The notes under the pieces are model-generated. The model saw nothing but the letters and a program-made list of their open reading frames with translations. It was not told the origin of the DNA and ran no database searches. Below are positions 8,359 to 28,822 of a DNA stretch of 60,658 nucleotides, piece after piece. The stretch's first letter is position 1. Each line of letters begins with the position of its first letter. Position numbers and translations under genes: made by a program. The DNA is from Dehalococcoidales bacterium (lineage in GTDB: Bacteria; Chloroflexota; Dehalococcoidia; Dehalococcoidales; BS750m-G39): positions 1-60,658 of the forward strand of contig JAGMCH010000060.1 of assembly GCA_023129255.1 (NCBI GenBank). The letters are read 5' to 3'.

Positions 8359-8427
8359 AATTCGGATGTCCTTATTCTTGGTGGTGAGGCTGGATGCCGT
8401 GCCGCCATCGGGATAACAGCCAGATAG
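8359..8427 (+). pseudogene. Possible remnant of the N-terminus of a second FAD flavoprotein (NSDVLILGGEAGCRAAIGITAR*)
   Basis: 22 codons with no start codon. They resemble the FAD-binding N-terminus of the 6044 gene (DVLVLGGGIAGCWAAISAAR) and end at TAG 8425-8427, where composition changes. Confidence 0.3.
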
Positions 8428-8473
8428 CCGGGGGTTTTAATATCGCTACAGGACTTAACGAGGAGAGGAGGAG

Positions 8474-8722
8474 GTGAAATTTGATGGTCTGGACTACGTG
8501 CTCTATCACTATCCTTCCGTCGGACCCGAGCTAAGAAAGGCGCTACAGAATGCAGAGAGTTCCCTGTTCAACTGCAAGGCGGAGCTTATCTTTGCAGTGG
8601 ACAAGCTGACTTACGGAGAGCGACCCAAGGTGGTCTATAAGGGCAGAGAGATAGAATTGCACTCCATATTTGGAATGCTCGTCCCTGAGGGTCCCGGGCA
8701 TTTCTACACAGAGAGAGTGTAG
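8474..8722 (+). CDS. Hypothetical protein (82 aa)
   Basis: GTG start directly after a strong AGGAGGAGG. No recognisable motif. Confidence 0.4.
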   Translation: MKFDGLDYVLYHYPSVGPELRKALQNAESSLFNCKAELIFAVDKLTYGERPKVVYKGREIELHSIFGMLVPEGPGHFYTERV

Positions 8723-8815
8723 AGACAACTTCTATACATTCCGTCAAAATGTTCAAAGTCTAGATTGCTGAATAAATCTTTCTACGAGGCATACTGAATC
8801 GAATAGAATCAACAA

Positions 8816-8845
8816 GGCGGAGCCGTTGTGCTCCGCCTTACTTTC
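8816..8845. terminator. Hairpin between convergent genes (bidirectional terminator candidate)
   Basis: GGCGGAGC-cgttgt-GCTCCGCC (8816-8837) followed by TTACTTT. Lies between the 3' ends of 8474..8722 (+) and 8876..9058 (-). Confidence 0.55.
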
Positions 8846-8875
8846 AATAATCCGCTTGTGGGTACTGGTAGGTGA

Positions 8876-9058
8876 CTATGTGGTCGTGAAGGTGGTATGA
8901 GGAACTTCCGATACTTCGCTCACTATCTCCCGTAGTTCTGAGATGGCTTCCAACTCAGCAGTTTCAACCTCAAATGATTGGGTGTCAAGCTCTTCAGTTT
9001 CAGATTGAAGGCGATTTAGTTCTTCAAAAATAATGTTATATCGACCTTTTTCTTTCAT
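8876..9058 (-). CDS. Small acidic coiled-coil protein (60 aa), co-transcribed with the protease
   Basis: AAGGAGG RBS, 18 nt after the protease stop. Glu/Leu-rich heptad-like sequence. No known motif. Confidence 0.5.
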   Translation of the reverse strand: MKEKGRYNIIFEELNRLQSETEELDTQSFEVETAELEAISELREIVSEVSEVPHTTFTTT

Positions 9059-9075
9059 GAGAGCCGACCTCCTTA

Positions 9076-10227
9076 TTAAACTATATTCTTCTTACTCTGT
9101 GCCTCAATCTGGTTGCGAAGATCAACCAAATTGCTTTGTGTGCCACAGTTGGGACAGACGAAAACATTATCTTTAGGAAAGGGCACAGCTCCTTTCTGCA
9201 ATGGCTGTGATTTAGAAAGATTTGCTTGTATCCTTGACCTATTTTGACATTTTGGACATTGAAAATCAACCATAGCTAGTTCGCCAGCTGGCTTTGCCTG
9301 TGGTAGTGGTGCTGGGGGTGAGAGAAAGCGATAAATCTGAGAAGTTGGAGTCTCAAAAAGTTTATAGATGTTGGTGTCGAATGTCATACGCAGTAGCGTA
9401 TAGTATCGTTTTATTGCGTCGAATAAATCTGGATCCCTTCCATAGTCGACTACTTTAAGTCTCATCTGATCAAAGTCCTCAATCTTGATTGACCTATTGT
9501 GTGTTAACCAATACCCGTGGTCACAGAGGTGATCAGCGATTTCCTTAGCACGAGACTGTTTTTCTTCATCAGTAACTGGCTCGCCTGAGCTTGAGTGCGT
9601 TGTCCAAGGCTTGAACTTGAAATTGGTGAGCCAGTTGGTTACGAGTGTACTGGAAAACTTCTGTGCGTTCTCACAACTCTGAATCTCTCCAGGTGAGATA
9701 CCTTGCAGGATGGGAATGTAAGCTCTATTTAGTTGCCCTGTTTCATCTACTTCGCGTTTAATCTTCTCAAGCCCTTCAAGAAAGGCATCAGCAGAGAACA
9801 CTTTACCTTGATGTAAAACCTGCGCGTCGATTGGCCCAAGTGAGGAAGTAGGTCCCATGAGTATCTCATCGCCCGCCATAGCCATTATAGTACCGGCACT
9901 CTTAGCGGTCCCCGGAACGATAACCCCAACTTTGGAGAACCTATTTCGTAAAAGTTTCATAATGTCTTCTGCGATCTCTGCTGAACCGCCAGGTGTTTCC
10001 AGAATTATATCTACCTCATCCCCAGACAAATTATCAATTTGATCGGCAATTGGCAAAATGTCTGAGTAGTCTATTAAAATAGGCCCGCGTTTTTGAAGAT
10101 CGCTTGCAAATGTGAGGATACTAGGACGCTTTCGAATAGAAGCAATACGAGCCAGCTGTTTCTTCCTTTCAGCCGTGATTTCCTGAGGTCCCTTAAGATT
10201 GTCTAGATATTCGGAATAAACGCCCAT
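9076..10227 (-). CDS. ClpP-fold serine protease of the S49/SDH (serine dehydrogenase proteinase-like) type with a C-terminal double zinc ribbon
   Basis: Core ILETPGGSAEIAEDI..VPGTAKSAGTIMAMAGDEILMGPTSSLGPID is typical of SppA/SDH_sah-like ClpP-fold peptidases. C-terminus carries CPKC..(33 aa)..CPNC. Confidence 0.7.
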   Translation of the reverse strand: MGVYSEYLDNLKGPQEITAERKKQLARIASIRKRPSILTFASDLQKRGPILIDYSDILPIADQIDNLSGDEVDIILETPGGSAEIAEDIMKLLRNRFSKVGVIVPGTAKSAGTIMAMAGDEILMGPTSSLGPIDAQVLHQGKVFSADAFLEGLEKIKREVDETGQLNRAYIPILQGISPGEIQSCENAQKFSSTLVTNWLTNFKFKPWTTHSSSGEPVTDEEKQSRAKEIADHLCDHGYWLTHNRSIKIEDFDQMRLKVVDYGRDPDLFDAIKRYYTLLRMTFDTNIYKLFETPTSQIYRFLSPPAPLPQAKPAGELAMVDFQCPKCQNRSRIQANLSKSQPLQKGAVPFPKDNVFVCPNCGTQSNLVDLRNQIEAQSKKNIV

Positions 10228-10390
10228 CAGCTACCCCCTAGGTAAGTACATTATATTATACCATATAGTTTGCTGCACAATATTTATTCATCATAGAGAA
10301 CAGGGAATCATTGTAGTTAATGAACAAAAAGCCATTTTGTTTATAGTCGCAGGTGGGGCAAAGGCAATCCTGATAAGGAAGCGCCACGCC

Positions 10391-10765
10391 TCACCTAGGG
10401 CTTTTCAAGAACTGGTCAACTGCATTCAGCAAGTCCCGAGGGGTAAATGGCTTGGTTATATATCCATTAGCGCCTATCTCCTGACTAAGCTTCACGTTGA
10501 GTTCGTGGTCTACGGCGCTAAGCATGACTACGGGAATCGCCCTGGTAATCGGGTCTTTCTTGATTTTGTTGCAGGCAGTATAGCCATCCATCTTTGGCAT
10601 CAAAATATCCATCAGGATGAGGTCTGGTTGCTGGCTGCGAGCCATGTCTACCGCTTCTCTCCCGTCACTCGCTCCGAGAACGACATAGTCTTTGCCCAGC
10701 ATGCTGCTTACCAGTAATCTGATATTCTCTTCGTCATCGGTTATAAGTATTTTCTTCCTACTCAT
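10391..10765 (-). CDS. Single-domain response regulator (CheY-like receiver)
   Basis: DDEE acidic pocket, phospho-acceptor context LILMDILMP, and KPF. 124 aa with no output domain. Confidence 0.9.
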   Translation of the reverse strand: MSRKKILITDDEENIRLLVSSMLGKDYVVLGASDGREAVDMARSQQPDLILMDILMPKMDGYTACNKIKKDPITRAIPVVMLSAVDHELNVKLSQEIGANGYITKPFTPRDLLNAVDQFLKSPR

Positions 10766-10930
10766 TTAGCTCCCCCTTTTATTCTTTTATCTTTCATCTT
10801 GCGCCTCCTCTGCTTTCCTGCGCGCGGCTTGGGACAATTCCAATTCAGCAATTCGTTTGCGTATTTCTGCTAACTCATTCATCATCCGTTCTTTTGTCTT
10901 GTCACGGTCTCACATCTCTCTAGCTTTGCC

Positions 10931-10980
10931 AAATTAAAAAGGGCGCCAGCCACCGCATATCACAGCGGTTCCAGCGCCCT
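10931..10980 (-). terminator. Rho-independent terminator after the Xis/MerR-like gene
   Basis: On the minus strand, AGGGCGC..(inner stem ACCGC/GCGGT)..GCGCCCT is followed by TTTTAATTT. Confidence 0.6.
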
Positions 10981-10987
10981 TGCTTCA

Positions 10988-11188
10988 TTACTTGATCTTG
11001 TGAGCCTCTTCTCCGATTCTCTTGATGTCAGCCTCCATGAACAGCCTCCATCCTCGTCTGTCCCTGTGAGGTACATCGTCAAGGATACCAGCCTTAAGCC
11101 ATCGAAACAGGGTAGACCTGCCTATGCCCACCACTCGACAGACCTCTGAGGTTCTATAATAGGTCTCTCCTTTGATTATGACTGGCAT
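10988..11188 (-). CDS. MerR/excisionase-family helix-turn-helix protein (66 aa)
   Basis: YYRTSEVCRVVGIGRSTLFRWLKAG is the HTH_17/Xis-MerR type motif. The size is typical of excisionase or AlpA-like regulators. Confidence 0.7.
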   Translation of the reverse strand: MPVIIKGETYYRTSEVCRVVGIGRSTLFRWLKAGILDDVPHRDRRGWRLFMEADIKRIGEEAHKIK

Positions 11189-11327
11189 GACCTAAGCCTC
11201 CTTCGAACTGCTACGGACCGATTGACATATCTCACATCTACTCAGCCTCCACGCCGGAATGAAAAGAAAATTTAGAAACTCAACCTGCTCAACTACACCA
11301 AGAAGACGAGGGAGCGGGAGGGAGCCT

Positions 11328-11549
11328 TCACCCTGCCAGAGATATGAGTAGCTCAATCCCTGATTCGCCTGGCATCTTGATATCCAGAATCACCGGTACA
11401 ACCGAGCTGTTTCGTATCCTATCTAGAGCTAGAGTCGTATCGCCTGCTTGCTGGCATTGGTAACCCTAGCTCGACAGCTTCTGACAAAGATGCCTCCTTA
11501 TTCCTTTCTTGTCATCAACAACCAGTATTCCTTCTTGTTTGGCAGTCAT
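11328..11549 (-). pseudogene. Decayed response-regulator receiver gene (in-frame TAG, truncated)
   Basis: Reads MTAKQEGILVVDDKKGIRRHLCQKLSS*GYQCQQAGDTTLALDRIRNSSVVPVILDIKMPGESGIELLISLAG*. In-frame TAG at 11466-11468, and the domain ends before the conserved T/K region. Its ATG overlaps the upstream TGA as ATGA (11546-11549). Confidence 0.6.
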
Positions 11550-11920
11550 CTCGCTATTTGCCTTAAGGTTTCTCGGACTATGCTCTTTAACTCATCAGGT
11601 GTAAATGGTTTAGGCAAAAACGGTCTGCCAGCTGCCTCCAAAAAGTGCTTGGTATATCCATCGGCCATATCCCCAGTGGTGAATATCACACCCCCGACTA
11701 GCTTTTCATGTTTCCCAACGATAACTTGATAGAGCTGTTCACCGTTCATTACTGGTGTCTTAACGTCAATGAGGCAAAGCTCGTAGTCCTTTTCCTCTAA
11801 CATATCTTGAGCTAGCTTGCCATCGACAGCAATATCTATCTCAAATCCTTCAGTGGTAAGGACTCTCCGGCAGAGTTCACAGATGGCTGGCTCATCTTCA
11901 ACTACCAGGATTCTCTTTAT
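11546..11920 (-). CDS. Single-domain response regulator; full receiver lacks a canonical start codon (ATA 11918-11920 proposed)
   Basis: The track ORF starts mid-domain (MLEEKDYELCLIDVKTP..). The same frame stays open upstream and reads (I)KRILVVEDEPAICELCRRVLTTEGFEIDIAVDGKLAQD, the missing beta1-alpha1-beta2 of a receiver. There is no ATG/GTG/TTG between the upstream TAG and 11803. GGAAGGAG lies 7 nt before ATA. Confidence 0.6.
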   Translation of the reverse strand: MKRILVVEDEPAICELCRRVLTTEGFEIDIAVDGKLAQDMLEEKDYELCLIDVKTPVMNGEQLYQVIVGKHEKLVGGVIFTTGDMADGYTKHFLEAAGRPFLPKPFTPDELKSIVRETLRQIAR

Positions 11921-12316
11921 TTTATAGCTCCTTCCCTATCATTCCTGACTGATAAGTAGCTCCACAAAAAGGTGGTGTCTTTGCCTAACTCACTCTCAGC
12001 GGACCCCTTACCGGTCCCTCAGGTTTTCCATTACTTCATTAATTACATATACTATCGAGCAGGAAATGGAACATCCGTCAGCCAAAGACTAGACGTTTTA
12101 CCGGACTTTGGTGACGCTCAGCATTATATAGGACACTTCGCTGCCTCCGTCTGCGCATCATTATAAATAGGCACAGTGCTATTGCCTAACTGTCCTGACT
12201 TTCTCACCTCACTCGCCTGCCGCTGGCATAACAAGTTGTGACATCGCTTGACAAGGTTAGGGGCGAAGGCAGGAGCTATGTCCTCCTACCTGCGGTCCTT
12301 CTCCTTCGCTGGTAGA

Positions 12317-12460
12317 CTATGGTATCGAGCCAACGGGACCTGCTACCACAGCTGTTACCGGTATGAAAGTAAGTATTGCTATAGCTGCTATGACAGCGAG
12401 TATAAACAGGGCTCTTAGTACGACGTTATGTCGCTCAGCTACGTGGAAAAGTCGTCTCAT
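12317..12460 (-). CDS. Possible small membrane protein (47 aa)
   Basis: Internal ATG 12460 is preceded by AAAGGGGGTG. One hydrophobic helix (LRALFILAVIAAIAILTFIPVTAVVAG). Weak support. Confidence 0.3.
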   Translation of the reverse strand: MRRLFHVAERHNVVLRALFILAVIAAIAILTFIPVTAVVAGPVGSIP

Positions 12461-12565
12461 GTGTGTCACCCCCTTTCCTCGGCCTTTAGAGACCGCAAAA
12501 TGTGAACACAAATATGATAAGGGAGAAGTTCTTACCAATCTCTTACCGAGGTGGGGGGAGAGCAC

Positions 12566-12607
12566 GAAGAAAACAGTAACGGGGCTTGCTTAATCGCAAA
12601 CCCCGTT
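12566..12607 (-). terminator. Rho-independent terminator after the STAND regulator gene
   Basis: On the minus strand, AACGGGG-loop-CCCCGTT (12578-12607) is followed by ACTGTTTTCTT. Confidence 0.55.
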
Positions 12608-12641
12608 CATGTCAAGACCAAGTTTGAATCTCGATTTGGCT

Positions 12642-15600
12642 TCAGGTAATTTCTTTCCCCACTAGGATGCGATCACGTAGTGCCTGGATGCGGGCTGGGG
12701 GAGCGTTCTCAGTGTCTCGAGCTGCGGTATCGACGTAACGCTTGTATGTTCGTAACGCCGCAGGTTGTTCTCCTAGCGCCAGATGCCACTCCATTATTTG
12801 ACAGTATATCTCGTCCTGATAAGGGTCAATAGTGATGAACTTTTCGAGGAGAGTGATGGCTTTTTGGTATTGTCTCTTGTCCGCGTAGAAACCGGCCAAC
12901 AATGAAAGAGTCCTCAGATACTTGTCCTCAAGATAACGGCGACGCATTTCGACCCAGTCACCATAAAATCCCTCCATGAAGCCTCCCCTGTACAGTTGGA
13001 TAGCCTGTTCTAGGTTGGCCATCCTAGCTTCGCTCTCAGGTGGCAGATTCTCTGCCCGCGACGACAAGTCTTCGAACTCTGCTACATCAAACCAAATATC
13101 TAGGTCAGGGTTGAGCTTGTATCTCCCATGTTCAAGAGTGAATATTCCAGGAAATACTGCTCTCCGTGCCCGGTACAAATTGATATGGAAGTTGCTAGTG
13201 CCCTTGGCTGGGGAAAGGTCAGGCCACACCTCAGCCATTATCTGTTCCTTTGTTTGTCCCTCACCACAAAGAAGTAAATAAAAGAATATTTCCTTGGCCC
13301 TGTTGCTTCTCCATTCGCCCTCACTGATTGGTCGACCACTAATAGTAACTAAAGTTTCTCCAAAAGCGCGAGCTTCAATCACAGGCTTAGCTATCACCCG
13401 AGGGAGAGCCGAAACCTCAGAAATTCTTAGTCGGCTATTGACGTTATCGTGCCTCCTAATTTTCTCCATGATGCGTGCGAAGCGGTCGCCTCCTACCTGT
13501 TTAGAGGCGGCGTATTGAATAAGGAGAACTGAGTTTCTACCTTCAATTGCTAAGAAGTCTTCGTAGCCCAGCTCATCGGCTAACTGGGATACCCTTTCAA
13601 GCCAGTTAATAGCTAAGTCATATTTCTTAGACAGAAACGATACCTGAGCCAGATGAAAATACGCTTTGACCAAGCCGTCTTTGTCTCCTGTGTCCCTGAG
13701 ACGTTCAGAGACACCGAGGAGAATATCCATTGCATTCTCATACCGACCCCGCTCGTACTCGATAATTCCAATCTGCATGGCAAACAGCGCCGCTTCGTAG
13801 GTCTGTCCCTGTTCCTTAGCCTGGGAGACGGCTTCCTTAAGGAGTACCTCTGCCTTGTCATGAGCACCAAGCAGCCGATATGTTTCTCCTATTCCAGCAG
13901 TAGCATGCGCCACATAATATGTTTCCATGACCTGTCTTGCCAGTTCAAGTCCTTCGCGATATGCTGTCAGCGCCTCATCATATAGTTCTAAGTTGCGTAG
14001 TACCTCAGCCTTGTTGATAAGAATCAAAGCCTCAGCTCGTCTATATCCGGTTTCTCTAGCTTTGTCCAAGCCGCTATGAAAGATATCCAGCGCCAAGTCA
14101 TATTGTCCCCGGAGGCGATAGACTATTCCTATATTATTTAGAGTTATAGCCATATCCCCGTAATTCTTTACCTTTTGCCACCCTTCTCTAGCACGCTCGA
14201 AGTGCAAGCTGGCCCCTGTCAGGTCACCAACATGTTCATAGATGTTGCCCAGCTCGTTGTGTACCGCGGCGATCATTCCCACATCAAGGATGGCAGAGTA
14301 CTGCTTTAACGCACGGCGCTGGTACCTGAGAGCTACGCGCAGATGGCCCTGGTCCGTATAAATGTTTCCTAGCCGTCTGTAGGCGTCGCCGAGAACATTT
14401 GCCGGGCCGTTATGTTGCTCAAGAAGCTGAATGGCAGCCCGTATGTCGCGCTTCGCTTCGGTAAAATGCCCGGTGAGGCGAAAAGCGGCACTCCGCCAAC
14501 TAAGTGCCTTTGCCCGATAGAGCCAATTTTCATCGACTTCGCCCCGCCCCAGGATTTCCGTTAAAAGGCATACCCCCTTGTCTACTTGGCCGACATGAAT
14601 CAAGCTTTGAGCCTGAAGTAGCACCAATTCGGGGTCAGACACTAGCATGTCCCTTGGGAGTGTTTCAACCCATTTTGAAACGGTGGCCCATTTCCCCGAC
14701 TTGATAAAGTCTTCACCAGCAATCTTAATAACTCTTAAAGCTGCCCCATATTCTTTTGCGGCCAAAAAGTGATTGATTGCCTCGTTCCACCTCTCTTCTT
14801 GTTCAAACAGTAGGGCAGCTTTGTGGTGTAAAAGCGCATATTCTTCGGGATTTTCCTCTAATAGCTTTGTCTGAAGAAATTCGCGAAACAGGTGATGGTA
14901 ACGATACCAGGGTTTTTCGCCTATGCGACTAGTGAAGAGGTTCTGCCTTTCGATGTCCTGGAGGAGCTTTCCTGAGTTCGTGATTCCCAATAGCCGCTGA
15001 CAAATCTCCGATTCCATTTCATTCAAGGTGCTAGACGCAAGTAGGAATCTCTTCACGTCGGGCAATTGTTTCCCATAGACTTCCGTGGCTAAATAGCGAA
15101 AAATATCCTCTCGCGATAATGTGAGCCTAGCTTTGCTTGGCTGACTTATGCCCTCGCCATAAGTGCTAAGCAATATCCCGGCTATCCAGCCCTCGGTCTC
15201 CGTACTTAACTTTTCTGCCTGCTCGTTGGACACCTGAAGCCCTTGTGTGGCAAACAACTCCCTTACCTCTGTGGCGGTGAACGACAAATCCGACGCACTG
15301 AGGCTCGTTGCAGAACGTTGGAACTTTAGCGAAGTTATAGATGGCAATTCAACTGGCGTTCGGCTAGAGATTATGACGTGGCAATTCTCTGGAATACGGC
15401 TCACAAAGAGGTCCAGGATTCGCTTTGCCGGGTCGCTATCTTGAACGCAGTGATAGTCTTCAAGTACGAGGACGAAATAGTCGGGAATGCCCTCGTAGAT
15501 TTCTCCAGTAAGCGTACTAACCAGGTGTGATGCGCTGATACCTACATCCTCCGTCAGTAGTAAGCGGGATTCTGTTAGCTGGCCGAATCCGGGAAAACGA

Positions 15601-15911
15601 AACCGGATAGATGCCAAAATGCCTTCGAGAAGTAGTCGGGGGTCTTGGTCATAGGTATCCAGTGAGTACCAGCAAGCCGGAATATCCAAATCGTTGGCAA
15701 AGTCTACTAGCAAAGTAGTCTTCCCGTAGCCAGCTGGTGCCGACACAACTTCGAGACGGAGATGAATATATTCGTGGAGGAAATCAAGCAATCTTTGGCG
15801 GCGTATAATGTCCTGCCGTCGTCGGGGAACCAAAACCTTGGTCGTGAATTCGGTACTAGCGACTGTCATACATATCACACTATAGTTTTCTCCACAGCTT
15901 TCGATTGACAT
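12642..15911 (-). CDS. STAND NTPase (MalT-like) - TPR - C-terminal SARP (OmpR-type wHTH + BTAD) transcriptional regulator
   Basis: Walker A SAPAGYGKTTLL and Walker B FVLVLEDYH, followed by long TPR-like repeats. C-terminal ..ISGRPISEGEWRSNRAKEIFFYLL..NFHINLYRARRAV.. is the wHTH, and ..LEQAIQLYRGGFMEGFYGDWV..YQDEIYCQIMEWHLALGE is the BTAD. The start is uncertain (ATG 15911, GTG near 15878, or ATG 15869) and none has a good RBS. Confidence 0.8.
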   Translation of the reverse strand: MSIESCGENYSVICMTVASTEFTTKVLVPRRRQDIIRRQRLLDFLHEYIHLRLEVVSAPAGYGKTTLLVDFANDLDIPACWYSLDTYDQDPRLLLEGILASIRFRFPGFGQLTESRLLLTEDVGISASHLVSTLTGEIYEGIPDYFVLVLEDYHCVQDSDPAKRILDLFVSRIPENCHVIISSRTPVELPSITSLKFQRSATSLSASDLSFTATEVRELFATQGLQVSNEQAEKLSTETEGWIAGILLSTYGEGISQPSKARLTLSREDIFRYLATEVYGKQLPDVKRFLLASSTLNEMESEICQRLLGITNSGKLLQDIERQNLFTSRIGEKPWYRYHHLFREFLQTKLLEENPEEYALLHHKAALLFEQEERWNEAINHFLAAKEYGAALRVIKIAGEDFIKSGKWATVSKWVETLPRDMLVSDPELVLLQAQSLIHVGQVDKGVCLLTEILGRGEVDENWLYRAKALSWRSAAFRLTGHFTEAKRDIRAAIQLLEQHNGPANVLGDAYRRLGNIYTDQGHLRVALRYQRRALKQYSAILDVGMIAAVHNELGNIYEHVGDLTGASLHFERAREGWQKVKNYGDMAITLNNIGIVYRLRGQYDLALDIFHSGLDKARETGYRRAEALILINKAEVLRNLELYDEALTAYREGLELARQVMETYYVAHATAGIGETYRLLGAHDKAEVLLKEAVSQAKEQGQTYEAALFAMQIGIIEYERGRYENAMDILLGVSERLRDTGDKDGLVKAYFHLAQVSFLSKKYDLAINWLERVSQLADELGYEDFLAIEGRNSVLLIQYAASKQVGGDRFARIMEKIRRHDNVNSRLRISEVSALPRVIAKPVIEARAFGETLVTISGRPISEGEWRSNRAKEIFFYLLLCGEGQTKEQIMAEVWPDLSPAKGTSNFHINLYRARRAVFPGIFTLEHGRYKLNPDLDIWFDVAEFEDLSSRAENLPPESEARMANLEQAIQLYRGGFMEGFYGDWVEMRRRYLEDKYLRTLSLLAGFYADKRQYQKAITLLEKFITIDPYQDEIYCQIMEWHLALGEQPAALRTYKRYVDTAARDTENAPPARIQALRDRILVGKEIT

Positions 15912-16148
15912 GAGGTAGTCGGATGGCTGCAGAACTAATCCCGTTATGAGATATTATAACTTCTTCTGATGGAGTGTGACAAGTAGCGAGAGGGCAATAA
16001 TGCCTAGACTATGGTAGCCGGGCAGTAAAGGTACGGGGTTTGAACTGCACTTTTCATCTTATTGTAAAGCGGCCAAAAGCCATTTTGTTTGCACCTTGCT
16101 CCCATCATGGACTTTTGCTCCAAAGGTCATTAGAATAAGAATAATACT

Positions 16149-17666
16149 ATGAAAATACTTTTGGTATATCCACAGTACCCGGATACTTTCTGGAGTTTTA
16201 AGCACGCCTTAAAATTCGTCTCCAAAAAGGCGGCTTTCCCGCCGCTGGGCTTATTAACTGTGGCAGCAATGCTCCCCAGTGAGTGGGAGAAAAAGCTGGT
16301 GGATATAAATGTAGCCAGCCTGACTGATAAGGACATCAGGTGGGCTGATTATGTGTTTATCAGCGCTATGGTGGTGCAAAGGGATTCGGTGAAGGAAGTT
16401 ATTGCCCGATGTAAGAAATTCAACACCAAGGTGGTTGCCGGCGGTCCCCTGTTCACAACTGGGTATAAAGAGTTTGACGGGGTAGACCATTTTGTGCTTA
16501 ATGAGGCTGAAATTACCCTTCCGCCCTTTTTAGAGGATTTAGAGAGAGGATGCGCCCAACATCTTTATACATCTGATGAACGACCAGACATAAGCAAAAC
16601 GCCTATCCCCCTATGGTCGCTTATCAACATGAAAAAATACGCCACCATGAATATTCAGTACTCTCGGGGCTGCCCGTTCAACTGTGAATTCTGCGATATT
16701 ATCATATTAAACGGGCATAAGCCACGAACCAAGGATAAAGTTCAGATGCTAGCAGAACTGGATGCATTATATAATCATGGCTGGCGGGGTGGGGTATTCA
16801 TTGTTGATGATAACTTCATAGGCAATAAGAGGAAACTAAAGACGGAAATTCTGCCGGCAATAATCGAGTGGATGAAAGGGGAAAGGTATCCCTTTGCCTT
16901 TTCTACGGAAGCATCTATAAATCTTGCTGATGATGAAGAGCTAATGCAATTGATGATCAAGGCAGGGGTTAACACCGTATTTGTTGGCATTGAAACCCCT
17001 AATGAAGAAAGCCTGGTTGAATGCAACAAGTTTCAAAATCAAAATCGTGATTTAGTGGCTTCGGTTAAGAAGATTCAAAACCGCGGCTTTGAGGTGACGG
17101 GAGGATTTATTGTTGGCTTTGATAATGACCCAATTTCCATCTTTAAGAACCAGATCAGTTTCATTCAGAGGAGTGGAATTGTTACCGCGATGGTCGGTTT
17201 ACTTAATGCTCCCCGCGGCACCAGATTATATCAGCGTTTGAAAAAGGAGGATCGCTTATTAAAGGATAGTTCTGGCGACAATACCGACTGTTCCATCAAC
17301 TTTATACCTAAAATGAACTATGAAACACTCATCAATGGCTATAAGCATATCCTAAATACAATTTATTCACCCAAGCAGTATTACGAGCGTATCAAAATAT
17401 TTCTAAAAGAGTATAAACCTCAAAGAAAAAGGGCACCTCAACTTCACCTTCATAATCTCTGGCCATTCATTAAATCTATGTGGCTTTTGGGTATCAAGGA
17501 AAAAGGAAGAGGGTATTACTGGAAGCTTTTTGTCTCAACCTTGCTAAAGCAACCGCGGAAATTTCCCCTTTCGATGAGCCTTAGCGTCTACGGATATCAT
17601 TTCCGCAAAGTTGTTGAGAAGTATATTAGTCTACCGGTTGAACATCCTGATAGTTCCGGTAACTAA
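16149..17666 (+). CDS. B12-binding radical SAM protein (class B, with DUF4070-like C-terminal region)
   Basis: N-terminal cobalamin-binding-type Rossmann segment. Radical SAM cluster motif YSRGCPFNCEFCD. 505 aa with a conserved C-terminal extension. Confidence 0.85.
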   Translation: MKILLVYPQYPDTFWSFKHALKFVSKKAAFPPLGLLTVAAMLPSEWEKKLVDINVASLTDKDIRWADYVFISAMVVQRDSVKEVIARCKKFNTKVVAGGPLFTTGYKEFDGVDHFVLNEAEITLPPFLEDLERGCAQHLYTSDERPDISKTPIPLWSLINMKKYATMNIQYSRGCPFNCEFCDIIILNGHKPRTKDKVQMLAELDALYNHGWRGGVFIVDDNFIGNKRKLKTEILPAIIEWMKGERYPFAFSTEASINLADDEELMQLMIKAGVNTVFVGIETPNEESLVECNKFQNQNRDLVASVKKIQNRGFEVTGGFIVGFDNDPISIFKNQISFIQRSGIVTAMVGLLNAPRGTRLYQRLKKEDRLLKDSSGDNTDCSINFIPKMNYETLINGYKHILNTIYSPKQYYERIKIFLKEYKPQRKRAPQLHLHNLWPFIKSMWLLGIKEKGRGYYWKLFVSTLLKQPRKFPLSMSLSVYGYHFRKVVEKYISLPVEHPDSSGN

Positions 17667-17674
17667 GGAATCAG

Positions 17675-17752
17675 GTGGAGTGGATAGAACAGTCAGCTGA
17701 AGTCACCCCGCTGATAAACTCCTGTCAGTGCGGTTACTATGGTGCCTTTTAG
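17675..17752 (+). CDS. Unannotated 25-codon ORF (MEWIEQSAEVTPLINSCQCGYYGAF), candidate precursor peptide
   Basis: GTG 17675 lies 5 nt after the AGGA core (17666-17669) of TAAGGAA, which overlaps the radical SAM stop codon. The ORF begins 8 nt after that stop. It is below the ORF-track size cutoff, and ORFs this short arise by chance, so support is positional only. Confidence 0.25.
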   Translation: MEWIEQSAEVTPLINSCQCGYYGAF

Positions 17753-18291
17753 TAGTTTTTCTATCCGGTCGTCTTGCATTTAACATTTCATCGGTATGTG
17801 TGATTAACTTAGAAGCAAAGGCCTGCAGACGGCGTTATTTTCCTGTTCAGACTCTGTCAGAAACAGAGATAGGTCTCCCAGCCATCTTAATGTACCGAGT
17901 CATATGGGTCTCTCAAAAGTACGGTCAGTTGACTGTTCAGATCAGCAGGACGTCACTTCACTGGACTACTGAAAAACAATTACTTCCTCATTCTCCTATG
18001 CTGCCTATCCTCACAATTCCACCATAGGCAAGGCTCTAGGAATAAAGCCCGACTCCCTCAAGCCTTGTGGTCAAGGGAACTCTCCCGAAAGAGCGGGATT
18101 TTCCTCATTAGTTAGATGCTAATCTACGCAGTCCGTGTAATCCGGTGCCGGAGAAATACTGAACATCTGACTGACTGAACGACTGAACAACGAGGTGAAC
18201 GTTTGCCTGAACTCTTTTTGGCCTGCATCAGTTAGCGGATTGTCTGGTGTGCTCTTTCCAATCTTTTCTCAATATTCCGTCAGCGATTCGC

Positions 18292-18777
18292 CTAGCTCCT
18301 TTTATCAAGTCTTCCCTTGGCCTCCTCGTATATCTTCCTAATGACCCTGGGGGCTAAGGTCGGGTCTGGGAGCGTTTCATTTATCACATCCCAGCAGAAG
18401 AGCACACTACTTGGTAGTGGTGGTAATGGAGGCGGAGAAGACTCTAATGATGCTGCTACAGCATCGACTGCCCGGTCATATATGTCCTTCTTAACCGTTT
18501 GCCTGCTTCCACAATGCGGACACTTCCGTCTCTTCCAATCCCGGTAGCCCTGAACCCTGCCTTTCCAAGGTTGAAGGCACTTCAAGCACAAGTAATCTTC
18601 CATCGCACACAAAGTATACTTCAACATCCACCCTTCTACAACCTTAGGAGGCAACGGATTGGCAGTTGACTTTTTCCATGACATGGAATAGAATGATTGA
18701 AAGACAAAACCCGAGAAGTTTGCATGGGCGTAGCCAAAAGAACAATACGCTATATCAAGGCTACGAATTAGCTTCAA
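18292..18777 (-). CDS. Hypothetical zinc-ribbon protein (up to 161 aa; start uncertain)
   Basis: CLKC..(23 aa)..CPHC zinc ribbon and a Pro-rich stretch. Divergent from the recombinase gene. No good RBS at TTG 18777 or ATG 18681. Confidence 0.45.
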   Translation of the reverse strand: MKLIRSLDIAYCSFGYAHANFSGFVFQSFYSMSWKKSTANPLPPKVVEGWMLKYTLCAMEDYLCLKCLQPWKGRVQGYRDWKRRKCPHCGSRQTVKKDIYDRAVDAVAASLESSPPPLPPLPSSVLFCWDVINETLPDPTLAPRVIRKIYEEAKGRLDKRS

Positions 18778-18865
18778 ACTCGGCTTAATAGGGAGTTCCT
18801 TTCAAGCCCTGAGTAAGTTGTGCAGGATAAGGAGTCATTCAGAATGGTTAAAGAGGAAGTGAACG

Positions 18866-20410
18866 ATGAGGTCAGCATTCTATCGCAGAGTCTCACTTGA
18901 TGAGCAAGTAACAGGCACGTCACTTGAGAATCAGAAGGCAAAACTGGGAGTCTTTTGTGGTGGTGATGAGACAATCTTGGATTATTGTGACGCTGGCTGC
19001 AGCGGTAAGGACGACAGACGTCCTGACCTACAGAGACTGCTAACAGACGCCAAACTACGACGCTTTGACCGTCTCGTATGCACTACGCTCGACAGACTTG
19101 CGCGCAATTTGCGATTACTACTCGAGCTTGATGAGGAACTACGCAAGCACAGCATCTACCTAGTCTTCATTGACCAAGGGGTCGACACTTCCAAGCCAAT
19201 GGGGAAGTTTGTCTTCCAAATTCTCGGCATTATCGCTGAGTGGGAGAGAGAGACTATTATTGAACGAACCAAATCTGGTCGCTATGCTCGTTATCAGGAA
19301 GGCAAATGGGGGCCAGGGCAACCACTGTATGGCTATGCTTATAACAGGGAAACCAAAAAGCTGGAGATTAGAGAGGATGAGATGGCAGTAGTTAAACGCA
19401 TTTATAGTCTCTACGTGTTTGACAGGCTGGGGATGGAGCAAATCGCAAGGCTGCTAAATATCGACCATGTGAAACCACGCCAGCAAGGCAGGTTATGGCA
19501 TAAGGCAGCAGTTCGGGACATCCTCATACACCCCGCCTATAAGGGCGAACATCCTACCGGTGTCGAAACACCTACCATTATCGAACCTTGGTTGTGGGAA
19601 TCAGCCCAGAAAAGACGCCATGAGAATCCACACCTACATCGTCGTAAAGGTTTGCGTTGGCTATTGCAGGGCATGATTCATTGCGGGCTTTGCGGTCGCA
19701 TACTGAGTTGCTCATACTCGCATGGCACTAAAGGTCGCCGAGTTTACTCATGCCCTGGTAGACGACTTGAAACTAAAGCTGCAGATGAGCAGAGGTGCCA
19801 GCTACCAACCCTTGACGCCGAATGGTTGGAACAGAAGGTCTATGATCACTTCACTGATGCCATGAGCAACCCAGAGGCAATGTCAAAAACGCTAAGAGAC
19901 GCTATCACTAGCCTCACAGTGAGGAAAACTCAACTAGAGGAAGAAATAAAACCAGTTGATGATAAGCTAGCCGAGATAGGGGAGAAATTAGAGAGATTGG
20001 CTGAGGACTGGGTTGTGAAACGTTTAAACCCAGAGAAGGCAGATTTAATGCGACATAAGCTAGAAGCTGAAGAGGTGAGGCTAACAGGCGTAAAACAGAA
20101 CTTAGATCCGGAACAGCTAGCCGAGCTTGAAGATATGGACTTTAGGCTTGAGCTGTACCAAGGCCAACTCAACTGCATTGCAAGGGGAGATACTGAAGGC
20201 TTTCCTTTCCTGATAATGGATCTACCTGAGACAAAGGACGAGGCTGAGCTTCAGACTGTCGCAAGAAGAGCCTCCCTCGACTACGTTCAGGCAGAGCTTT
20301 GGGCATACCCAGACCGTACCGAGGTCAAGGCACAAATTCCCGTAACAAGTGTTGAATCGCAACAGTTGGAACCTGGTTATAGGTCAGGACGTTACCCACA
20401 ATCTCGATGA
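18866..20410 (+). CDS. Large serine recombinase (phage-integrase type)
   Basis: Catalytic N-terminus AFYRRVSLDEQ, resolvase core ..LDRLARN.., recombinase domain, zinc ribbon CGLCGR..YSCPG, and a long coiled-coil. The last ~12 codons run antisense through the capsid gene stub. Confidence 0.88.
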   Translation: MRSAFYRRVSLDEQVTGTSLENQKAKLGVFCGGDETILDYCDAGCSGKDDRRPDLQRLLTDAKLRRFDRLVCTTLDRLARNLRLLLELDEELRKHSIYLVFIDQGVDTSKPMGKFVFQILGIIAEWERETIIERTKSGRYARYQEGKWGPGQPLYGYAYNRETKKLEIREDEMAVVKRIYSLYVFDRLGMEQIARLLNIDHVKPRQQGRLWHKAAVRDILIHPAYKGEHPTGVETPTIIEPWLWESAQKRRHENPHLHRRKGLRWLLQGMIHCGLCGRILSCSYSHGTKGRRVYSCPGRRLETKAADEQRCQLPTLDAEWLEQKVYDHFTDAMSNPEAMSKTLRDAITSLTVRKTQLEEEIKPVDDKLAEIGEKLERLAEDWVVKRLNPEKADLMRHKLEAEEVRLTGVKQNLDPEQLAELEDMDFRLELYQGQLNCIARGDTEGFPFLIMDLPETKDEAELQTVARRASLDYVQAELWAYPDRTEVKAQIPVTSVESQQLEPGYRSGRYPQSR

Positions 20411-20516
20411 AGGGCATCTGCTGAAGGATGGGCGAGTCCTTGACTATAGTCTCCACTACTCCTTGAAGTAGCATATCATTTGACAGCTTGGCTGCCTCAT
20501 CTAATGTTAAAGCCAT
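20325..20516 (-). pseudogene. 5' stub of a phage major capsid gene (about 48 native codons, then unrelated sequence)
   Basis: MALTLDEAAKLSNDMLLQGVVETIVKDSPILQQMPFIEIVGNVLTYNQ.. matches the N-terminal pattern I associate with HK97-fold major capsid proteins. It sits directly after portal and scaffold. Only 63 codons remain, and it converges on and overlaps the recombinase 3' end. Confidence 0.5.
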
Positions 20517-20519
20517 TTT

Positions 20520-21011
20520 CTATCTCCTTTCTCCTATTGCGTATTGAATCTTCTCCTGTGGGGATAGGGCTGAGAGGTCTACCGGCGTCCTCTGTGGAGC
20601 CCCAGCCGGCACCCTAGCCCCGGCTATCTCGGCCTCCAGTTCCTTCCTCACCCTGTCGATGAGGGTCTGGGCATCTTCCACCGACTTATCAATAGCCTCA
20701 ATGCTGTCCCCGGCTATCAGCTCTTCGGGCATACCGGGGTTTGATTTGACCGCCAGAGCCCGGTAGCTTGATACTACCTGAGATAGACTATTCTCCAGGT
20801 CAGTCAACTTCTGCTCTAGCTCAGCCATAGATTGCTTGAGGGCAGCAATTTGGTTATCCTTGCTGGCTATGGCTTGCTCAAGTTCAGAGAGGCGCAAGTC
20901 CTTGGCCGCCAGCTGCTCATCCTTCTCGGCTATCAGCCCCTCAAGCTCGGTAGTTCTGGAAGTCTCCGGCTCTTCCCCGCTGGGATTTTGGTTTTGTTTA
21001 TTATCTGGCAA
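20520..21011 (-). CDS. Phage scaffolding protein (coiled-coil, acidic)
   Basis: 163 aa with a Glu/Leu/Ala-rich coiled coil. Sits in the canonical position between portal and capsid genes. Confidence 0.6.
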   Translation of the reverse strand: MPDNKQNQNPSGEEPETSRTTELEGLIAEKDEQLAAKDLRLSELEQAIASKDNQIAALKQSMAELEQKLTDLENSLSQVVSSYRALAVKSNPGMPEELIAGDSIEAIDKSVEDAQTLIDRVRKELEAEIAGARVPAGAPQRTPVDLSALSPQEKIQYAIGERR

Positions 21012-21023: not shown

Positions 21024-22424
21024 TTATGAGGAAGATTCCTCAACGCCTTCGGTCTCCGTGGCTGAAACTCTCCCTCTCTCTCCGCCTCGCGTTGACCTGG
21101 CGTTAAGCTCTTTATTCATCCTGAGGATAGCCTCCCTCTCCTCCAACCACCGCTCGAACTCATCCTCTGAGTCTTTAACCCCTATTTCATCCATAGCCCT
21201 ACGCCTGGAGTGGATACCGGTCTGAACCAGCGTCTGTTCGTTGGCAACCAGCCTGGTTAAATCCTGAGGCAGTATCGGACTCCATATTACCCGCAGGCGG
21301 TTATTATCGCCAAACTCCGTTCCCTGGTACCTCTCCAGGAGCTTGAGAATGAGCCTGTTTCTACGGTTATAGACCGCAGTCCTGATAATCCGCTTTCGCC
21401 TTACCTTCTGAAGTAGTGGGTTAAGCTCAATCTCAAGGGCTACCCCCGATAAGTCCCTCTCGGTGCCGCCAAAGGCAGCCCGAGGAGATTCCGATATGTC
21501 ATGCAGGGTCCTGTATAGTAGATTTATATAATCTATGTGCAGCCTGACCCCCCCACCCTGCAAGAGGTCAAGCAGATAGGCTTTAGCATCCTCGGGGATA
21601 TTCCACACCGCCCCGGGTTTGACCGTAATATCCTCAGATTCCTCCACGTTCTCCAGCACGGCAATGGGGTTGCCCGATAGCTCTAATATCCGGGATAGCT
21701 GTGACATCGCCCGATTAAGCTCCTGCTGCGACTCTATAATCTGTGACAAATCAGATATGCCCCAGAACCTCTTTGGCTCCCTGAGGTTAGGGTAGATGAT
21801 AAACGGGATAAAGCCGTAGGGATTGGGCTTACTTTCAATCAGGTTATCATCTAGGTAAAGCTCAAATTCCCCGTCGGTCCACAGCTCAACAACGGTCGCC
21901 TTCTTAGCCTTGGGCTTCACCTGATACAGGAACTCGGTTTCCTCGGCACTCAGGCTGTATTTAGAGGCTACCCTCCATATTCTTGAGGTATCATCCCCCA
22001 GCCACCAGGCATAGATGCCCTGGACATCGGGGGCGGTAATCCTCACCCTCTTTGCCTCCCCGTCCCAGATAACCTTATAGCTGGCATCGCCCAGGATAGC
22101 GCAATCAATCTCGGTCTCAAGGTCGAGCTGCTCCAGATTATTATCCTCGTAAACCTGGTGCAGGGTGGCCTCGGCTCTCTGGGCTCTGGCTTTATCCTCC
22201 TCCGAGCCCCCCGCCGCTTCCACAGCAAAGTTAATGCCCGACATTAGATATGAAGTAACCTTGTCTATGAATACCTTGGTATAGTTGAAGGTCAGGCGTT
22301 TCTCCCCTCGCCTTTCCCTACCTTCCCACTGCCGACCATGGTAGAAATCAAGTAGCCCTCTATACTCTCTGAGCCGGTCTATATCATGGCGGTTTAACTG
22401 GGCGATAATAGAAGTTTTATTCAT
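21024..22424 (-). CDS. Phage portal protein (SPP1 gp6-like)
   Basis: 466 aa. N-terminal ..YYHGRQW..LTFNYTKVFIDKVTSYL.. pattern, acidic C-terminal tail, and position in the head module. Confidence 0.8.
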   Translation of the reverse strand: MNKTSIIAQLNRHDIDRLREYRGLLDFYHGRQWEGRERRGEKRLTFNYTKVFIDKVTSYLMSGINFAVEAAGGSEEDKARAQRAEATLHQVYEDNNLEQLDLETEIDCAILGDASYKVIWDGEAKRVRITAPDVQGIYAWWLGDDTSRIWRVASKYSLSAEETEFLYQVKPKAKKATVVELWTDGEFELYLDDNLIESKPNPYGFIPFIIYPNLREPKRFWGISDLSQIIESQQELNRAMSQLSRILELSGNPIAVLENVEESEDITVKPGAVWNIPEDAKAYLLDLLQGGGVRLHIDYINLLYRTLHDISESPRAAFGGTERDLSGVALEIELNPLLQKVRRKRIIRTAVYNRRNRLILKLLERYQGTEFGDNNRLRVIWSPILPQDLTRLVANEQTLVQTGIHSRRRAMDEIGVKDSEDEFERWLEEREAILRMNKELNARSTRGGERGRVSATETEGVEESSS

Positions 22425-22731
22425 TGGTGCCCCCTAAAATCTTGATTTTTGGGGTAGATTCCTCTCTGGCTCTCTTTAATATCCGCTGAATGGTGCGCTG
22501 ACTAACGCCGAACATCAATGCCAGCTCCTTTATTCCTTTACCCTGGGCGGTGAATAGCCTTAACACCTCTTTGTCTCTCAACCTCTTCAGCCACCGCTGC
22601 CTGCCCCCAGGCTGGGCATAAATACATTCTGGAAACGGGCAGTTGAGGCAGGAGCTAGCAAATTCGCATCCATCATCCTGGTAGCGGCAATACTCCGGCA
22701 ACAAATCCAAATCGCTCTCATCCAAACACAT
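22417..22731 (-). CDS. Phage small Cys-rich / HTH protein (104 aa)
   Basis: N-terminal Cys cluster (CEFASSCLNCPFPEC). C-terminal HTH IKELALMFGVSQRTIQRILKRA. Overlaps the portal start by 8 nt. Confidence 0.6.
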   Translation of the reverse strand: MCLDESDLDLLPEYCRYQDDGCEFASSCLNCPFPECIYAQPGGRQRWLKRLRDKEVLRLFTAQGKGIKELALMFGVSQRTIQRILKRAREESTPKIKILGGTNE

Positions 22732-26802: not shown

Positions 26803-28197
26803 TTACTCCCCCCTCACCCTCCCCACGGCTGTTTTCGGCTCATACTGGTTGGCGGCTTCCACCACCAGTGCCAGGCTCATGAGGAAGTCGTCGTGCCCCT
26901 CAGCCGGGCTGACATAGAAATTTACGGTCTGTGACGGGCGGAACTGACTCTTTGCCCTCTCCATCTCATTCCAGAACTCCCTATGCTCATCTGAGCCGTC
27001 TCCAGCGTAAACCTTCAGCCTGCCCGAGTTAATAGCGGCTAAAAGATTGAAGCCCAGCTCCGACTTCGCCCGCGCTGTGAAGGTAAAGGCTGAGACCTTT
27101 GAGCCGAGCGCTTTCCTTAAAAACGAGCTTACCGGCTGGCCGATGCCGGTGGCATCAACCACCACCTTGCGGCAGTGCCACACATTTTTGAGGATATCAA
27201 CCAGCCGGGGGTAGAGCCGGGTGTGCTTCTCGCCTGTCCACCAGTAGTGCTCAACCACGCATACCCTTGGCTGCTTCTGGATGTCGTCGCAGATAGAGAA
27301 GTCCAGCTCCCCGATGGTAACCACCGTGGAGTCCTGGTGCGGCTTGAGACTGCTCAAATATACTCCCTCCTCCACCTCAGCCTCCCCCGCCAGGTCGATG
27401 CCGGCAACATAGACCTTGCCCCGCTCGGACGAGTGCTTTCTCATATGCTCCCCGTTTAGCTGAGCCAACTGCTGCCGACTCAAAAAACCACCGCCGCCAT
27501 GGATGGGTAAAAGCCGATACTGGGTCAAAAACAGGGGGTGATTTTCGCCCAGACGCTCTCTTTCTGCCTCAACATAGGCTAGGTAATCAGGGTTATAGCT
27601 GGCTATCTCCTGCCAGTCATATCGGAAGTGGCGCTTAACACCGTCCTTCCTCTCCAGTTCAAGGTTGGTCTGCTTCACCTCCTCCAGCAGGGTAGAATCG
27701 TCCCAGGTAGTGCCGTAGTGGACGGTGGTAACATTGGTCGTTGCCCCCATCGGCTTGAACTCCTTGGTGTATTTCTCCCGGCTCACATCCTGCGACTCGT
27801 CTATTTCCAGCAAAATGTGGGCGGTGTTGCCCACCACATTGGCTGAGACATCGGCAGAGAGAAATATTGCCCTGGCATTCCCCAGCCTGATGATATAGCC
27901 CAGCTCAGCCATCCAGATGCCGCTGAATCCAGCGTCATTCAACCTATCCTTGAGCCGCATCATGGAGATGACTGTCTGCGGCTTGAAGGTGGGCGAGCAC
28001 TTCACCAGGTTCTGGGGCTGGGTCATATACAGGGTTAACAGCAGAAGCTCAAGCTGGGCTGATAGCTCATTCTTACCTCCCTGACGAGCCATTTCCACCG
28101 AGAAGGTAAGCCCCTTCTTGCCGAAAACACTGCTCAATATAGCCGAAGCCACCTCCCGCTGGTATGGTCTCAGCCTATTAATACTGTTCATTGACAT
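26803..28197 (-). CDS. Phage terminase large subunit
   Basis: 464 aa. N-terminal ATPase with LRPYQ..ARQGGKNE P-loop-like motif. C-terminal RNase H-like nuclease motif VVVDATGIG. Preceded by a terS-like gene. Confidence 0.8.
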   Translation of the reverse strand: MSMNSINRLRPYQREVASAILSSVFGKKGLTFSVEMARQGGKNELSAQLELLLLTLYMTQPQNLVKCSPTFKPQTVISMMRLKDRLNDAGFSGIWMAELGYIIRLGNARAIFLSADVSANVVGNTAHILLEIDESQDVSREKYTKEFKPMGATTNVTTVHYGTTWDDSTLLEEVKQTNLELERKDGVKRHFRYDWQEIASYNPDYLAYVEAERERLGENHPLFLTQYRLLPIHGGGGFLSRQQLAQLNGEHMRKHSSERGKVYVAGIDLAGEAEVEEGVYLSSLKPHQDSTVVTIGELDFSICDDIQKQPRVCVVEHYWWTGEKHTRLYPRLVDILKNVWHCRKVVVDATGIGQPVSSFLRKALGSKVSAFTFTARAKSELGFNLLAAINSGRLKVYAGDGSDEHREFWNEMERAKSQFRPSQTVNFYVSPAEGHDDFLMSLALVVEAANQYEPKTAVGRVRGE

Positions 28198-28444: not shown

Positions 28445-28822
28445 CTATTTAGTGACGGTTTGTCCGATGCCGATGCCGAGCGGGATGGCGATATCCTTGA
28501 GGACATTGCCTATAGCCTCCTTCAGCCCCTTCCTCTGCTCTTTGCTGATGTTGTATCTGGTCCTGACCAGTCTCTCCAGGGCATTGGTCATCTGCAGAAT
28601 GAGCTGGATATTCTCCGGGTCATTCTGCAGCAGAGACTTTATCTTAACCCGAAGTAGGGCAATCTCATCATCAAAGCCCTCAACGCCAGAGGCTAGTTCA
28701 AAATCTAGCTGTTCCGCTTCGTCCAGCACTTTAGAGTAGAAGCCGTGTTTACGAGCGTTCTGATTGCCCTTTGGGGCGCCTCTTTTTCGCTTTACCTTTT
28801 CCGCCATCCGGTCTATCTCCAT
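28445..28822 (-). CDS. Putative terminase small subunit
   Basis: Basic N-terminus KRKRGAPKGNQNARKHGFYS, a motif seen in small terminase-like phage proteins, and position just upstream of terL. The start may be ATG 28807 (GGAGA RBS). Confidence 0.5.
   Translation of the reverse strand: MEIDRMAEKVKRKRGAPKGNQNARKHGFYSKVLDEAEQLDFELASGVEGFDDEIALLRVKIKSLLQNDPENIQLILQMTNALERLVRTRYNISKEQRKGLKEAIGNVLKDIAIPLGIGIGQTVTK

Follow-up and report, generated by a model that had tools for sequence, protein, structure and literature searches.

We analysed a 60,658-nucleotide stretch of DNA from a Dehalococcoidales bacterium (contig JAGMCH010000060.1 of assembly GCA_023129255.1, positions 1 to 60,658; hereafter the window), in which the gene of a large serine recombinase (LSR) runs into a truncated gene for a phage-type major capsid protein (MCP). 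The source is a metagenome-assembled genome (MAG) in 104 contigs, recovered from a complex sediment community. In the labels used below, C stands for MAG contigs, X for metagenome runs, G for species genomes, L for loci or contigs, and P for LSR homologues. On the minus strand, a gene for a helix-turn-helix (HTH) protein of 104 amino acids (22731-22417) is followed by a portal gene (466 amino acids, 22424-21024), a scaffold-like gene (163 amino acids, 21011-20520), and a 63-codon open reading frame (ORF; 20516-20325), referred to here as the stub. The LSR gene (18866..20410, plus strand, 514 amino acids) converges on the stub (20325..20516, minus strand, 63 amino acids), and the two overlap at 20325-20410; these coordinates and the overlap stand as they were given in a first-pass annotation made from the sequence. 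The features of the junction are the following:

18866..20410, plus strand: large serine recombinase (Pfam Resolvase, Recombinase, and Zn_ribbon_recom; PHROG 95)
20372..20378, no strand assigned: 7-bp core common to both junctions (capsid identity ends there; present at the partner junction and on L096, both described below)
20373..20516, minus strand: genuine capsid codons 1-48 (MALTLDEAAKLS...VLTYNQ) (PHROG 212; identity to intact MCPs)
20325..20372, minus strand: 15 unrelated, non-capsid codons and the stop of the stub, antisense of the recombinase 3' end (comparison with intact genes)
20345..20410, no strand assigned: putative hybrid attachment site, with a P-type arm left of the core and a B-type capsid arm right of it (attB/attP reconstruction and half-site motifs)

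The stub had zero matches in a Pfam scan, and PHROGs and tblastn were needed for its identification. Residues 1-49 align to positions 4-54 of the 301 positions of the PHROG 212 'major head protein' profile (E 1.5e-10), the N-termini of many phage capsid genes match as well, and residues 1-52 are 82-90% identical to intact capsid proteins of 305-306 amino acids encoded by related Dehalococcoidia. After the break, the intact genes continue EKTLPTIDFYDVGD, while the window reads VPTVAIQHLLREFVP and a stop; seen at the protein level, intact MCPs read ...VLTYNQEKTLPTIDFYDVGD and the window ...VLTYNQVPTVAIQHLLREFVP before its stop. DNA identity to the intact capsid genes stops directly after AACCAGG (window 20372-20378, CCTGGTT on the plus strand). 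These comparisons confirmed that the 63-codon ORF is made of the 48 first codons of a 306-amino-acid MCP and 15 unrelated codons. The stub had been described as capsid-like for about 48 residues and then diverging, with a junction inferred near 20373; the profile match and the identity to intact MCPs bear out the former, and the latter was correct to within a few bases.

The break is crossed by Logan unitigs from four cold-seep metagenome runs (35-300x), with 0 mismatches and at flat depth. The crossing unitigs span 17836-20858 in X1 (34.9x), 18377-20621 in X2 (302x), 18161-20550 in X3, and 20285-20550 in X5. Run X5 also contains a second, diverged strain (variants at ~139x), one unitig of which departs at 20374 and goes on into an intact capsid gene; the X5 community therefore also has an uninterrupted capsid allele, but in the other strain.

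To find the reciprocal junction, the unitigs of X1 and X2 were compared with the intact capsid gene of L009. In this comparison, the reciprocal loose end lies at 2750 and corresponds exactly to the recombinase side of the window. The partner unitig carries the capsid gene from nucleotide 139, in codon 47 (AACCAGGAGAAG...), with unrelated DNA (...CCATTCTAAAAGGTAAGGGTTCTATCTTGT) ahead of the capsid part, and its depth is that of the window organism (36.3x vs 34.9x in X1, 309x vs 302x in X2). A search with a 22-mer from this partner junction retrieved a JGI metagenome contig, L096, that is near-identical, has the same structure, and adds 1.2 kb of the far end of the inserted DNA, hereafter the island. 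The missing 3' part of the capsid gene is thus present as a partner junction in the same metagenomes, while neither an HMM search nor tblastn with eight close MCPs found it in the MAG contigs. The genes expected downstream are there: C99 encodes a LamG-domain protein, an SU10-adaptor-like protein, a 101-amino-acid protein, and most of a 667-amino-acid protein, C19 encodes the end of the latter and a 70-amino-acid protein, and C99 terminates just where the capsid gene would begin. Because the partner junction occurs at equal depth and the downstream genes lie on C99 and C19, the lack of the capsid remainder in the MAG is an assembly gap and not a deletion.

A portal-based scan of species-representative genomes gave 145 matching loci, all from Dehalococcoidia-type MAGs; 80 of these loci, with portal identities of 63-89%, were retained. 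Most loci with the region on the contig show the scaffold gene followed by a full capsid gene of 305-306 amino acids, with no recombinase. The MCP gene is split at the same codon and abutted by an LSR gene in genomes G001, G002, G004, G083, G090, G106, and G159 and on contigs L003, L005/L006, L007, L015, L029, L050, L118, and L121. This arrangement occurs in at least 10 species genomes, besides further contigs from metagenomes. The capsid remainder, from ..YNQEKT onward, is found on a separate contig in G002, G003, G004, G090, G145, and G159. In G106, both capsid halves lie in the same orientation on one contig, 7.9 kb apart, around an element that is bounded on one side by the LSR gene and also holds an HTH_17 excisionase-like gene; its cargo is otherwise almost all of unknown function. 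Insertion-type splits were found in ~10 of the 237 capsid-bearing genomes of the order.

The LSRs at these capsid junctions are 30-81% identical to that of the window. How far they have diverged does not follow the divergence of the neighbouring portal, which indicates that different islands entered the same site independently: identity to the window is 87% for the portal vs 49% for the LSR at L005, 78% vs 81% at L029, and 81% vs 41% at L015. Both capsid halves are stop-free in G002, G003, G004, G106, G090, G145, and G159, and the dN/dS of the capsid remainders to the nearest intact gene is 0.04-0.15 (intact-intact median 0.125). There is thus no sign that the remainders decay; it should be noted that dS (0.56-1.0) is too large for dN/dS to separate recent insertion from continued selection.

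The LSR has the expected domains: Resolvase (PF00239, 4.8e-37, residues 4-148), Recombinase (PF07508, 1.3e-12, residues 170-254), and Zn_ribbon_recom (PF13408, 2.8e-10, residues 266-328), with weak coiled-coil-type matches at residues 323-440 and a match to PHROG 95 'integrase' at 8e-93. Its catalytic domain matches PDB structures of invertase, resolvase, TP901-1, Bxb1-type, and SprA enzymes, and all of the 14 homologues aligned keep the catalytic R8 and S10 (YRRVSLDEQ). Residues 1-504 are encoded by the element, whereas residues 505-514 (YRSGRYPQSR) and the stop codon (20378-20410) are capsid DNA read antisense.

The first-pass annotation held that full-length homologues sharing the same C-terminal residues would mean that there is no fusion at the junction. 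The residues ..P.YRSGHYPQSR are indeed common to the window LSR and to homologues down to ~38% identity, but they are so because these homologues sit at the same capsid junction; the conserved tail arises where the capsid DNA that encodes the conserved motif IEIVGNxLTYN is read antisense, and unrecombined relatives differ. Every verified capsid-junction LSR has either the tail xRSxHxPQSR or an earlier stop, and the capsid-antisense tail occurs in 39 of the 120 closest database clusters of LSR homologues. Some relatives have another tail, as in P0017 (..PAHRIEGLPLKLILEMKK, then a stop). When the window LSR up to the core was joined to the reverse complement of the far-end arm of L096, the frame continued (..EPGYKIEPLPLRMVLELGQIPARK..), and this reconstructed tail aligns codon by codon, also in DNA, with the natural tail of an unrecombined relative, L004. 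Similarly, P0038 and P0068 agree at 80% identity as far as ..YR, after which each has one of the two tail types. The native LSR in its attP state is predicted to have a longer tail (YKIEPLPLRMVLELGQ) with a conserved LP-x-KL-x-LE motif. Since the crossover falls inside the LSR 3' end, integration exchanges this native tail (~30 terminal residues in the free form) for 10 capsid-antisense codons in the integrated form.

The 7-bp core AACCAGG is found at both junctions, that is, in the window, in its partner from the same metagenomes, and in L096. Strand exchange must fall within this core. The consensus of the intact genes gives GTGGGCAACGTCCTGACCTAYAACCAGGAGAAGACCCTGCCCAC as the predicted attB, whose ends form a 7-bp perfect inverted repeat (GTGGGCA...TGCCCAC). 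The far-end (P) arms of eight elements have GGYAAGRGT in common, ~12 nt from the core, which echoes GGGCAACGTC in the capsid arm. The half-site motifs in the reconstructed attB and attP are GGGCA(A/G)(C/G)GTC and GGYAAGRGT, and the best symmetry axis in both reconstructed sites falls between TATA and ACCA or between TGTA and ACCA. The arrangement suggests AA at 20377-20378 as the candidate exchanged dinucleotide.

We observed both junctions, the recurrence of the split, and the exchange of tails, and from these we conclude that the window junction is very probably one of the two hybrid sites produced when the LSR recombined attP, located in its own 3' end, with a fixed attB at capsid codons 47-48. 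Integration of a recombinase-bearing element into a resident capsid gene was one of two explanations offered at first, and the partner junction and the recurrence at the same codon speak for it. The recombination chemistry, current activity of the recombinase, and reversibility are things we infer. LSR dimers would bind two ~40-bp sites and cut at the central dinucleotide inside AACCAGG, and one half would rotate before the ends rejoin. The capsid gene is thereby left in two pieces, a stub of 48 codons and a remainder that lacks its N-terminus, and the LSR loses its native tail and reads the 10 capsid-antisense codons (YRSGRYPQSR) instead. With its capsid gene split, the cluster to which this gene belongs could not make capsid while the island is docked. 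The reverse reaction would rebuild both the capsid gene and the LSR gene exactly. Like tRNA and tmRNA genes elsewhere, the capsid site serves as a conserved single-copy docking site for many divergent LSR islands.

Several observations weigh against such an insertion in its simplest form. The 20.4 kb of contig left of the junction contain no partner junction, and neither the 30-nt far-end sequence from the unitigs nor the 1.2-kb far-end contig L096 has a match in the MAG. No same-strain empty site or circular form was found in the Logan unitigs, which drop rare variants, and dyad symmetry is weak, with 15/36 and 14/31 complementary positions in the reconstructed attB and attP. In addition, a block at 104-8369 (Opp-type transporter, FAD oxidoreductase, ferredoxin) is syntenic, at 86-90% identity, with a chromosomal block of G016, G028, and G013 and ends at 8369, where the joint is spanned by unitigs; in G016 it stands in a housekeeping context, and its neighbours there (dxs, pgk, and others) are on C11 here. 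Because these neighbours lie on C11, the two junctions may be split by a rearrangement or by a very large insert; C62 and C11 both lack the partner junction. We therefore keep as a tentative possibility, on the unlikely side, that the same chemistry acted in another topology, either at a resident LSR site through an intramolecular attP x attB inversion or with a later inversion, one breakpoint of which falls within the island. In that case, the sequence to the left of the LSR would not simply be an inserted island, while the nature of the junction would be unchanged. However, in G106 the 7.9-kb element is simply inserted, the Opp/FAD block occurs in only 9 of 30 genomes of the family and so could itself be island cargo, and contig ends carry no orientation information.

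The other explanations fare less well than insertion by the LSR. A recombinase-mediated deletion of the rest of the capsid and tail genes was the second one offered by the first-pass annotation, and a deletion of this or another kind, taking the downstream structural genes as well and leaving a dead remnant, would fit the lack of a capsid C-terminal part in the MAG and of tail genes in the window. It is nevertheless very improbable, as capsid codons 47 onward were recovered at equal depth in the same metagenomes, the adaptor, LamG, 667-amino-acid, and 70-amino-acid genes are on C99 and C19, with C99 ending where the capsid should begin, and split halves elsewhere are stop-free with normal dN/dS. 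The identical five-gene picture in several contigs and the conserved LSR tail could also be taken to mean that LSR, stub, scaffold, portal, and HTH form a co-inherited cassette (a satellite or decoy), in which a 48-residue capsid N-arm peptide is selected and no insertion junction exists. We give this idea very little credit too: most genomes carry HTH, portal, and scaffold genes with a full-length capsid gene and without the LSR, portal and LSR divergence are uncoupled, the capsid remainder is found at the other end of the island, and the extra stub codons differ between loci. Finally, an assembly or binning chimera of two organisms might be feared in a 104-contig MAG from complex sediment, the more so as assemblies often break near islands, but the junction is crossed at even depth and with 0 differences by unitigs obtained independently from four runs, and junctions of the identical type occur in >10 other assemblies, which makes a chimera hardly conceivable.

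The interrupted gene belongs to a gene cluster that is conserved across the order. Of the 363 genomes of the order, 237 have the capsid gene (100/131 high-quality genomes, 108/156 genera), usually once per genome, and the matches listed are 79-100% identical. The conserved cluster comprises a terS-like gene, terL, a variable gap, and the HTH, portal, scaffold, and MCP (SU10_MCP / HK97-type) genes, followed downstream by the genes for the LamG protein, the SU10-adaptor-like protein, the 667-amino-acid protein, and the 70-amino-acid protein. In the window, the parts of the cluster other than the capsid stub are the following:

20520..21011, minus strand: scaffold-like coiled-coil protein (position between portal and capsid kept in 79-80 loci; coiled-coil matches)
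21024..22424, minus strand: portal (SPP1_portal, 2.8e-29; 63-89% identity across 80 species genomes)
22417..22731, minus strand: small Cys-rich HTH protein (Mor / sigma-70 region 4-like), gene 1 of the head operon (kept in 82 loci)
26803..28197, minus strand: terminase large subunit of the same cluster (Terminase_6C; PHROG terL; 81% identity to the L022 homologue)
28445..28822, minus strand: terminase small subunit-like protein (PHROG 1889 terS, 8.5e-08)

No lysogeny, replication, long-tail, or lysis modules were found among the conserved cluster genes. Given its wide distribution and limited module set, the capsid-bearing cluster is not an ordinary inducible prophage, and the 'resident prophage' of the first-pass annotation gives way to an order-wide, strongly conserved phage-like cluster. 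It looks like a domesticated, possibly gene-transfer-agent-like particle system. In the literature searched, no gene transfer agent was described for Dehalococcoidia and nothing was found on this cluster, which is not proof of novelty. We consider it rather doubtful, although conceivable, that the LSR islands act as reversible switches on this order-wide domesticated system, docking turning it off and excision restoring both the capsid and the native LSR tail. If this were true, the exchange of tails might favour one direction of recombination or link the escape of the island to particle production, and the island could ride in the particles.

Two other capsid arrangements were seen. The complete genome G072 has a second capsid homologue (C1:833163-834032, only 47% identity) in addition to the conserved one. 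In the single-contig genome G193, the same capsid gene is split elsewhere, at codon ~270 (C1:1541802-1542614, minus strand, and 1399552-1399662, plus strand); its two parts lie on different strands with 142 kb between them, an arrangement that points to a large inversion broken within the capsid gene.

The closest setting described before is that of the ssrA islands of Dehalococcoides. These are regarded as integrative mobilizable elements with variable cargo; they target the 3' end of the tmRNA gene, with a 20-bp ssrA repeat, and have a CcrB-like LSR of ~540 amino acids, DsiB, adjoining one attachment site and, beside it in a six-gene integration module, a second, small serine recombinase, DsiA (McMurdie et al. 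2011, PMC3146451). The island studied here is alike in its bacterial class, in having an LSR at the attachment site, and in using a conserved single-copy target gene, but its target is a capsid gene and the crossover lies inside the recombinase ORF. The window contains no tmRNA, only one distant tRNA-Leu, and no 20-bp ssrA repeat, and there was no Rfam match at 7000-30000. The neighbour of the LSR gene encodes a 161-amino-acid Zn-ribbon protein without a resolvase domain, and no DsiA-like gene is found beside the LSR. By tblastn with the window LSR, this is the only LSR-type recombinase in the MAG; small DsiA-type recombinases were not searched separately.

LSR elements that split protein-coding genes are known from Bacillus subtilis, namely skin (SpoIVCA, in sigK) and SPbeta (SprA, in spsM), and from Anabaena, with the fdxN element (XisF); they interrupt host developmental genes, and their excision is developmentally timed. 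As in these systems, a protein-coding gene is split precisely with both halves intact, the recombinase gene is at the edge of the element, and excision would rebuild the gene. Unlike in them, the interrupted gene is a virus-derived capsid gene, and many unrelated islands use one site. In Myxococcus phage Mx8 and the fusellovirus SSV1, which are complete viruses, attP lies inside the tyrosine integrase gene, and integration alters or splits the integrase. The likeness to Mx8 and SSV1 is an attachment site in the recombinase coding sequence, so that the integrated form would differ from the free form in its C-terminus; here, however, the enzyme is a serine recombinase, and ~10 terminal residues (integrated) are exchanged for ~30 (free). 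With the large serine integrases of phages and ICEs (phiC31, Bxb1, TP901-1, A118, TnpX), the window LSR has the domain architecture in common, and its predicted att sites are likewise short, with a small core and without a long duplication of the target. It differs from them in its low identity outside the catalytic domain, in its target, and in that the element is a cargo island and not a phage.

The island is thus a known kind of element with a new target, a well-mapped and recurrent docking site in a capsid gene; our literature search turned up no serine recombinase described as using a capsid gene as its target, although this absence does not prove novelty. It provides a new, precisely mapped natural attB/attP system, in which a divergent LSR clade (30-81%) keeps one 7-bp core and one target, and this clade should be useful for understanding how such enzymes hold or change their site specificity. 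The target is unusual, being the capsid gene of a virus-derived cluster conserved across an order of environmental and bioremediation interest, and the cluster is itself exposed as a probable domesticated particle system and a hotspot of island traffic. The system also offers a serine-recombinase example of an attachment site within the recombinase gene, with a C-terminus that would differ between the free and integrated forms, and it explains the breaks of MAG assemblies at this locus in these organisms.

The interior of the island was examined on the recombinase side:

8370..18865, no strand assigned: recombinase-proximal part of the island, ~10.5 kb, accessory, lower GC (synteny end at 8369; GC 0.43-0.49; Pfam)

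This part encodes an NfeD/SDH-protease-like protein, response regulators, a BTAD-TPR regulator, a B12 radical SAM protein, a MerR/HTH_17 protein of 66 amino acids (10988-11188, minus strand), and the 161-amino-acid Zn-ribbon protein (18292-18777, minus strand). LSRs depend on a directionality factor for excision, and the small HTH_17/MerR proteins encoded at 10988-11188 and in the G106 element are candidates for this role. A stretch of non-coding DNA with the Zn-ribbon gene (18034-18703) is 80% identical in DNA to the region upstream of the L005 recombinase, whereas the L005 and window LSRs are only 49% identical, so the island ends are mosaic.

Near this end, at 17975-18150, unitigs in four runs skip 174 nt at about the main depth, with short anchors (22-29 nt), and alternative unitig paths begin at 17783, 17923, and 18178. 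Copies of this stretch with 70-77% similarity occur on MAG contig C71; possible explanations are a dispersed repeat and a structural variant. The independent assemblies of L005, L006, and L118-L121 all break 280-1150 nt upstream of the recombinase start, and these recurring breaks suggest that, within populations, the interiors of the islands vary or occur in repeated copies.

On C11, past the synteny break, an rdhA-like gene is found together with metabolic genes. The rdhA-like gene (C11 21166-22635, L117 1667-3136; reductive-dehalogenase-like, PF13486 and 4Fe-4S) lies right past the end of synteny with G016. Among the LSR homologues, a large subgroup (P0058-P0121) ends in ..QLCTST(R/K)G.., which suggests a different conserved target. 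In a test for an ssrA-type target, no tRNA, tmRNA, or Rfam match was found beside P0116 of this subgroup. The single ..QLCTST.. locus that was inspected (L097 1430-3082) adjoins bioY and riboflavin genes.

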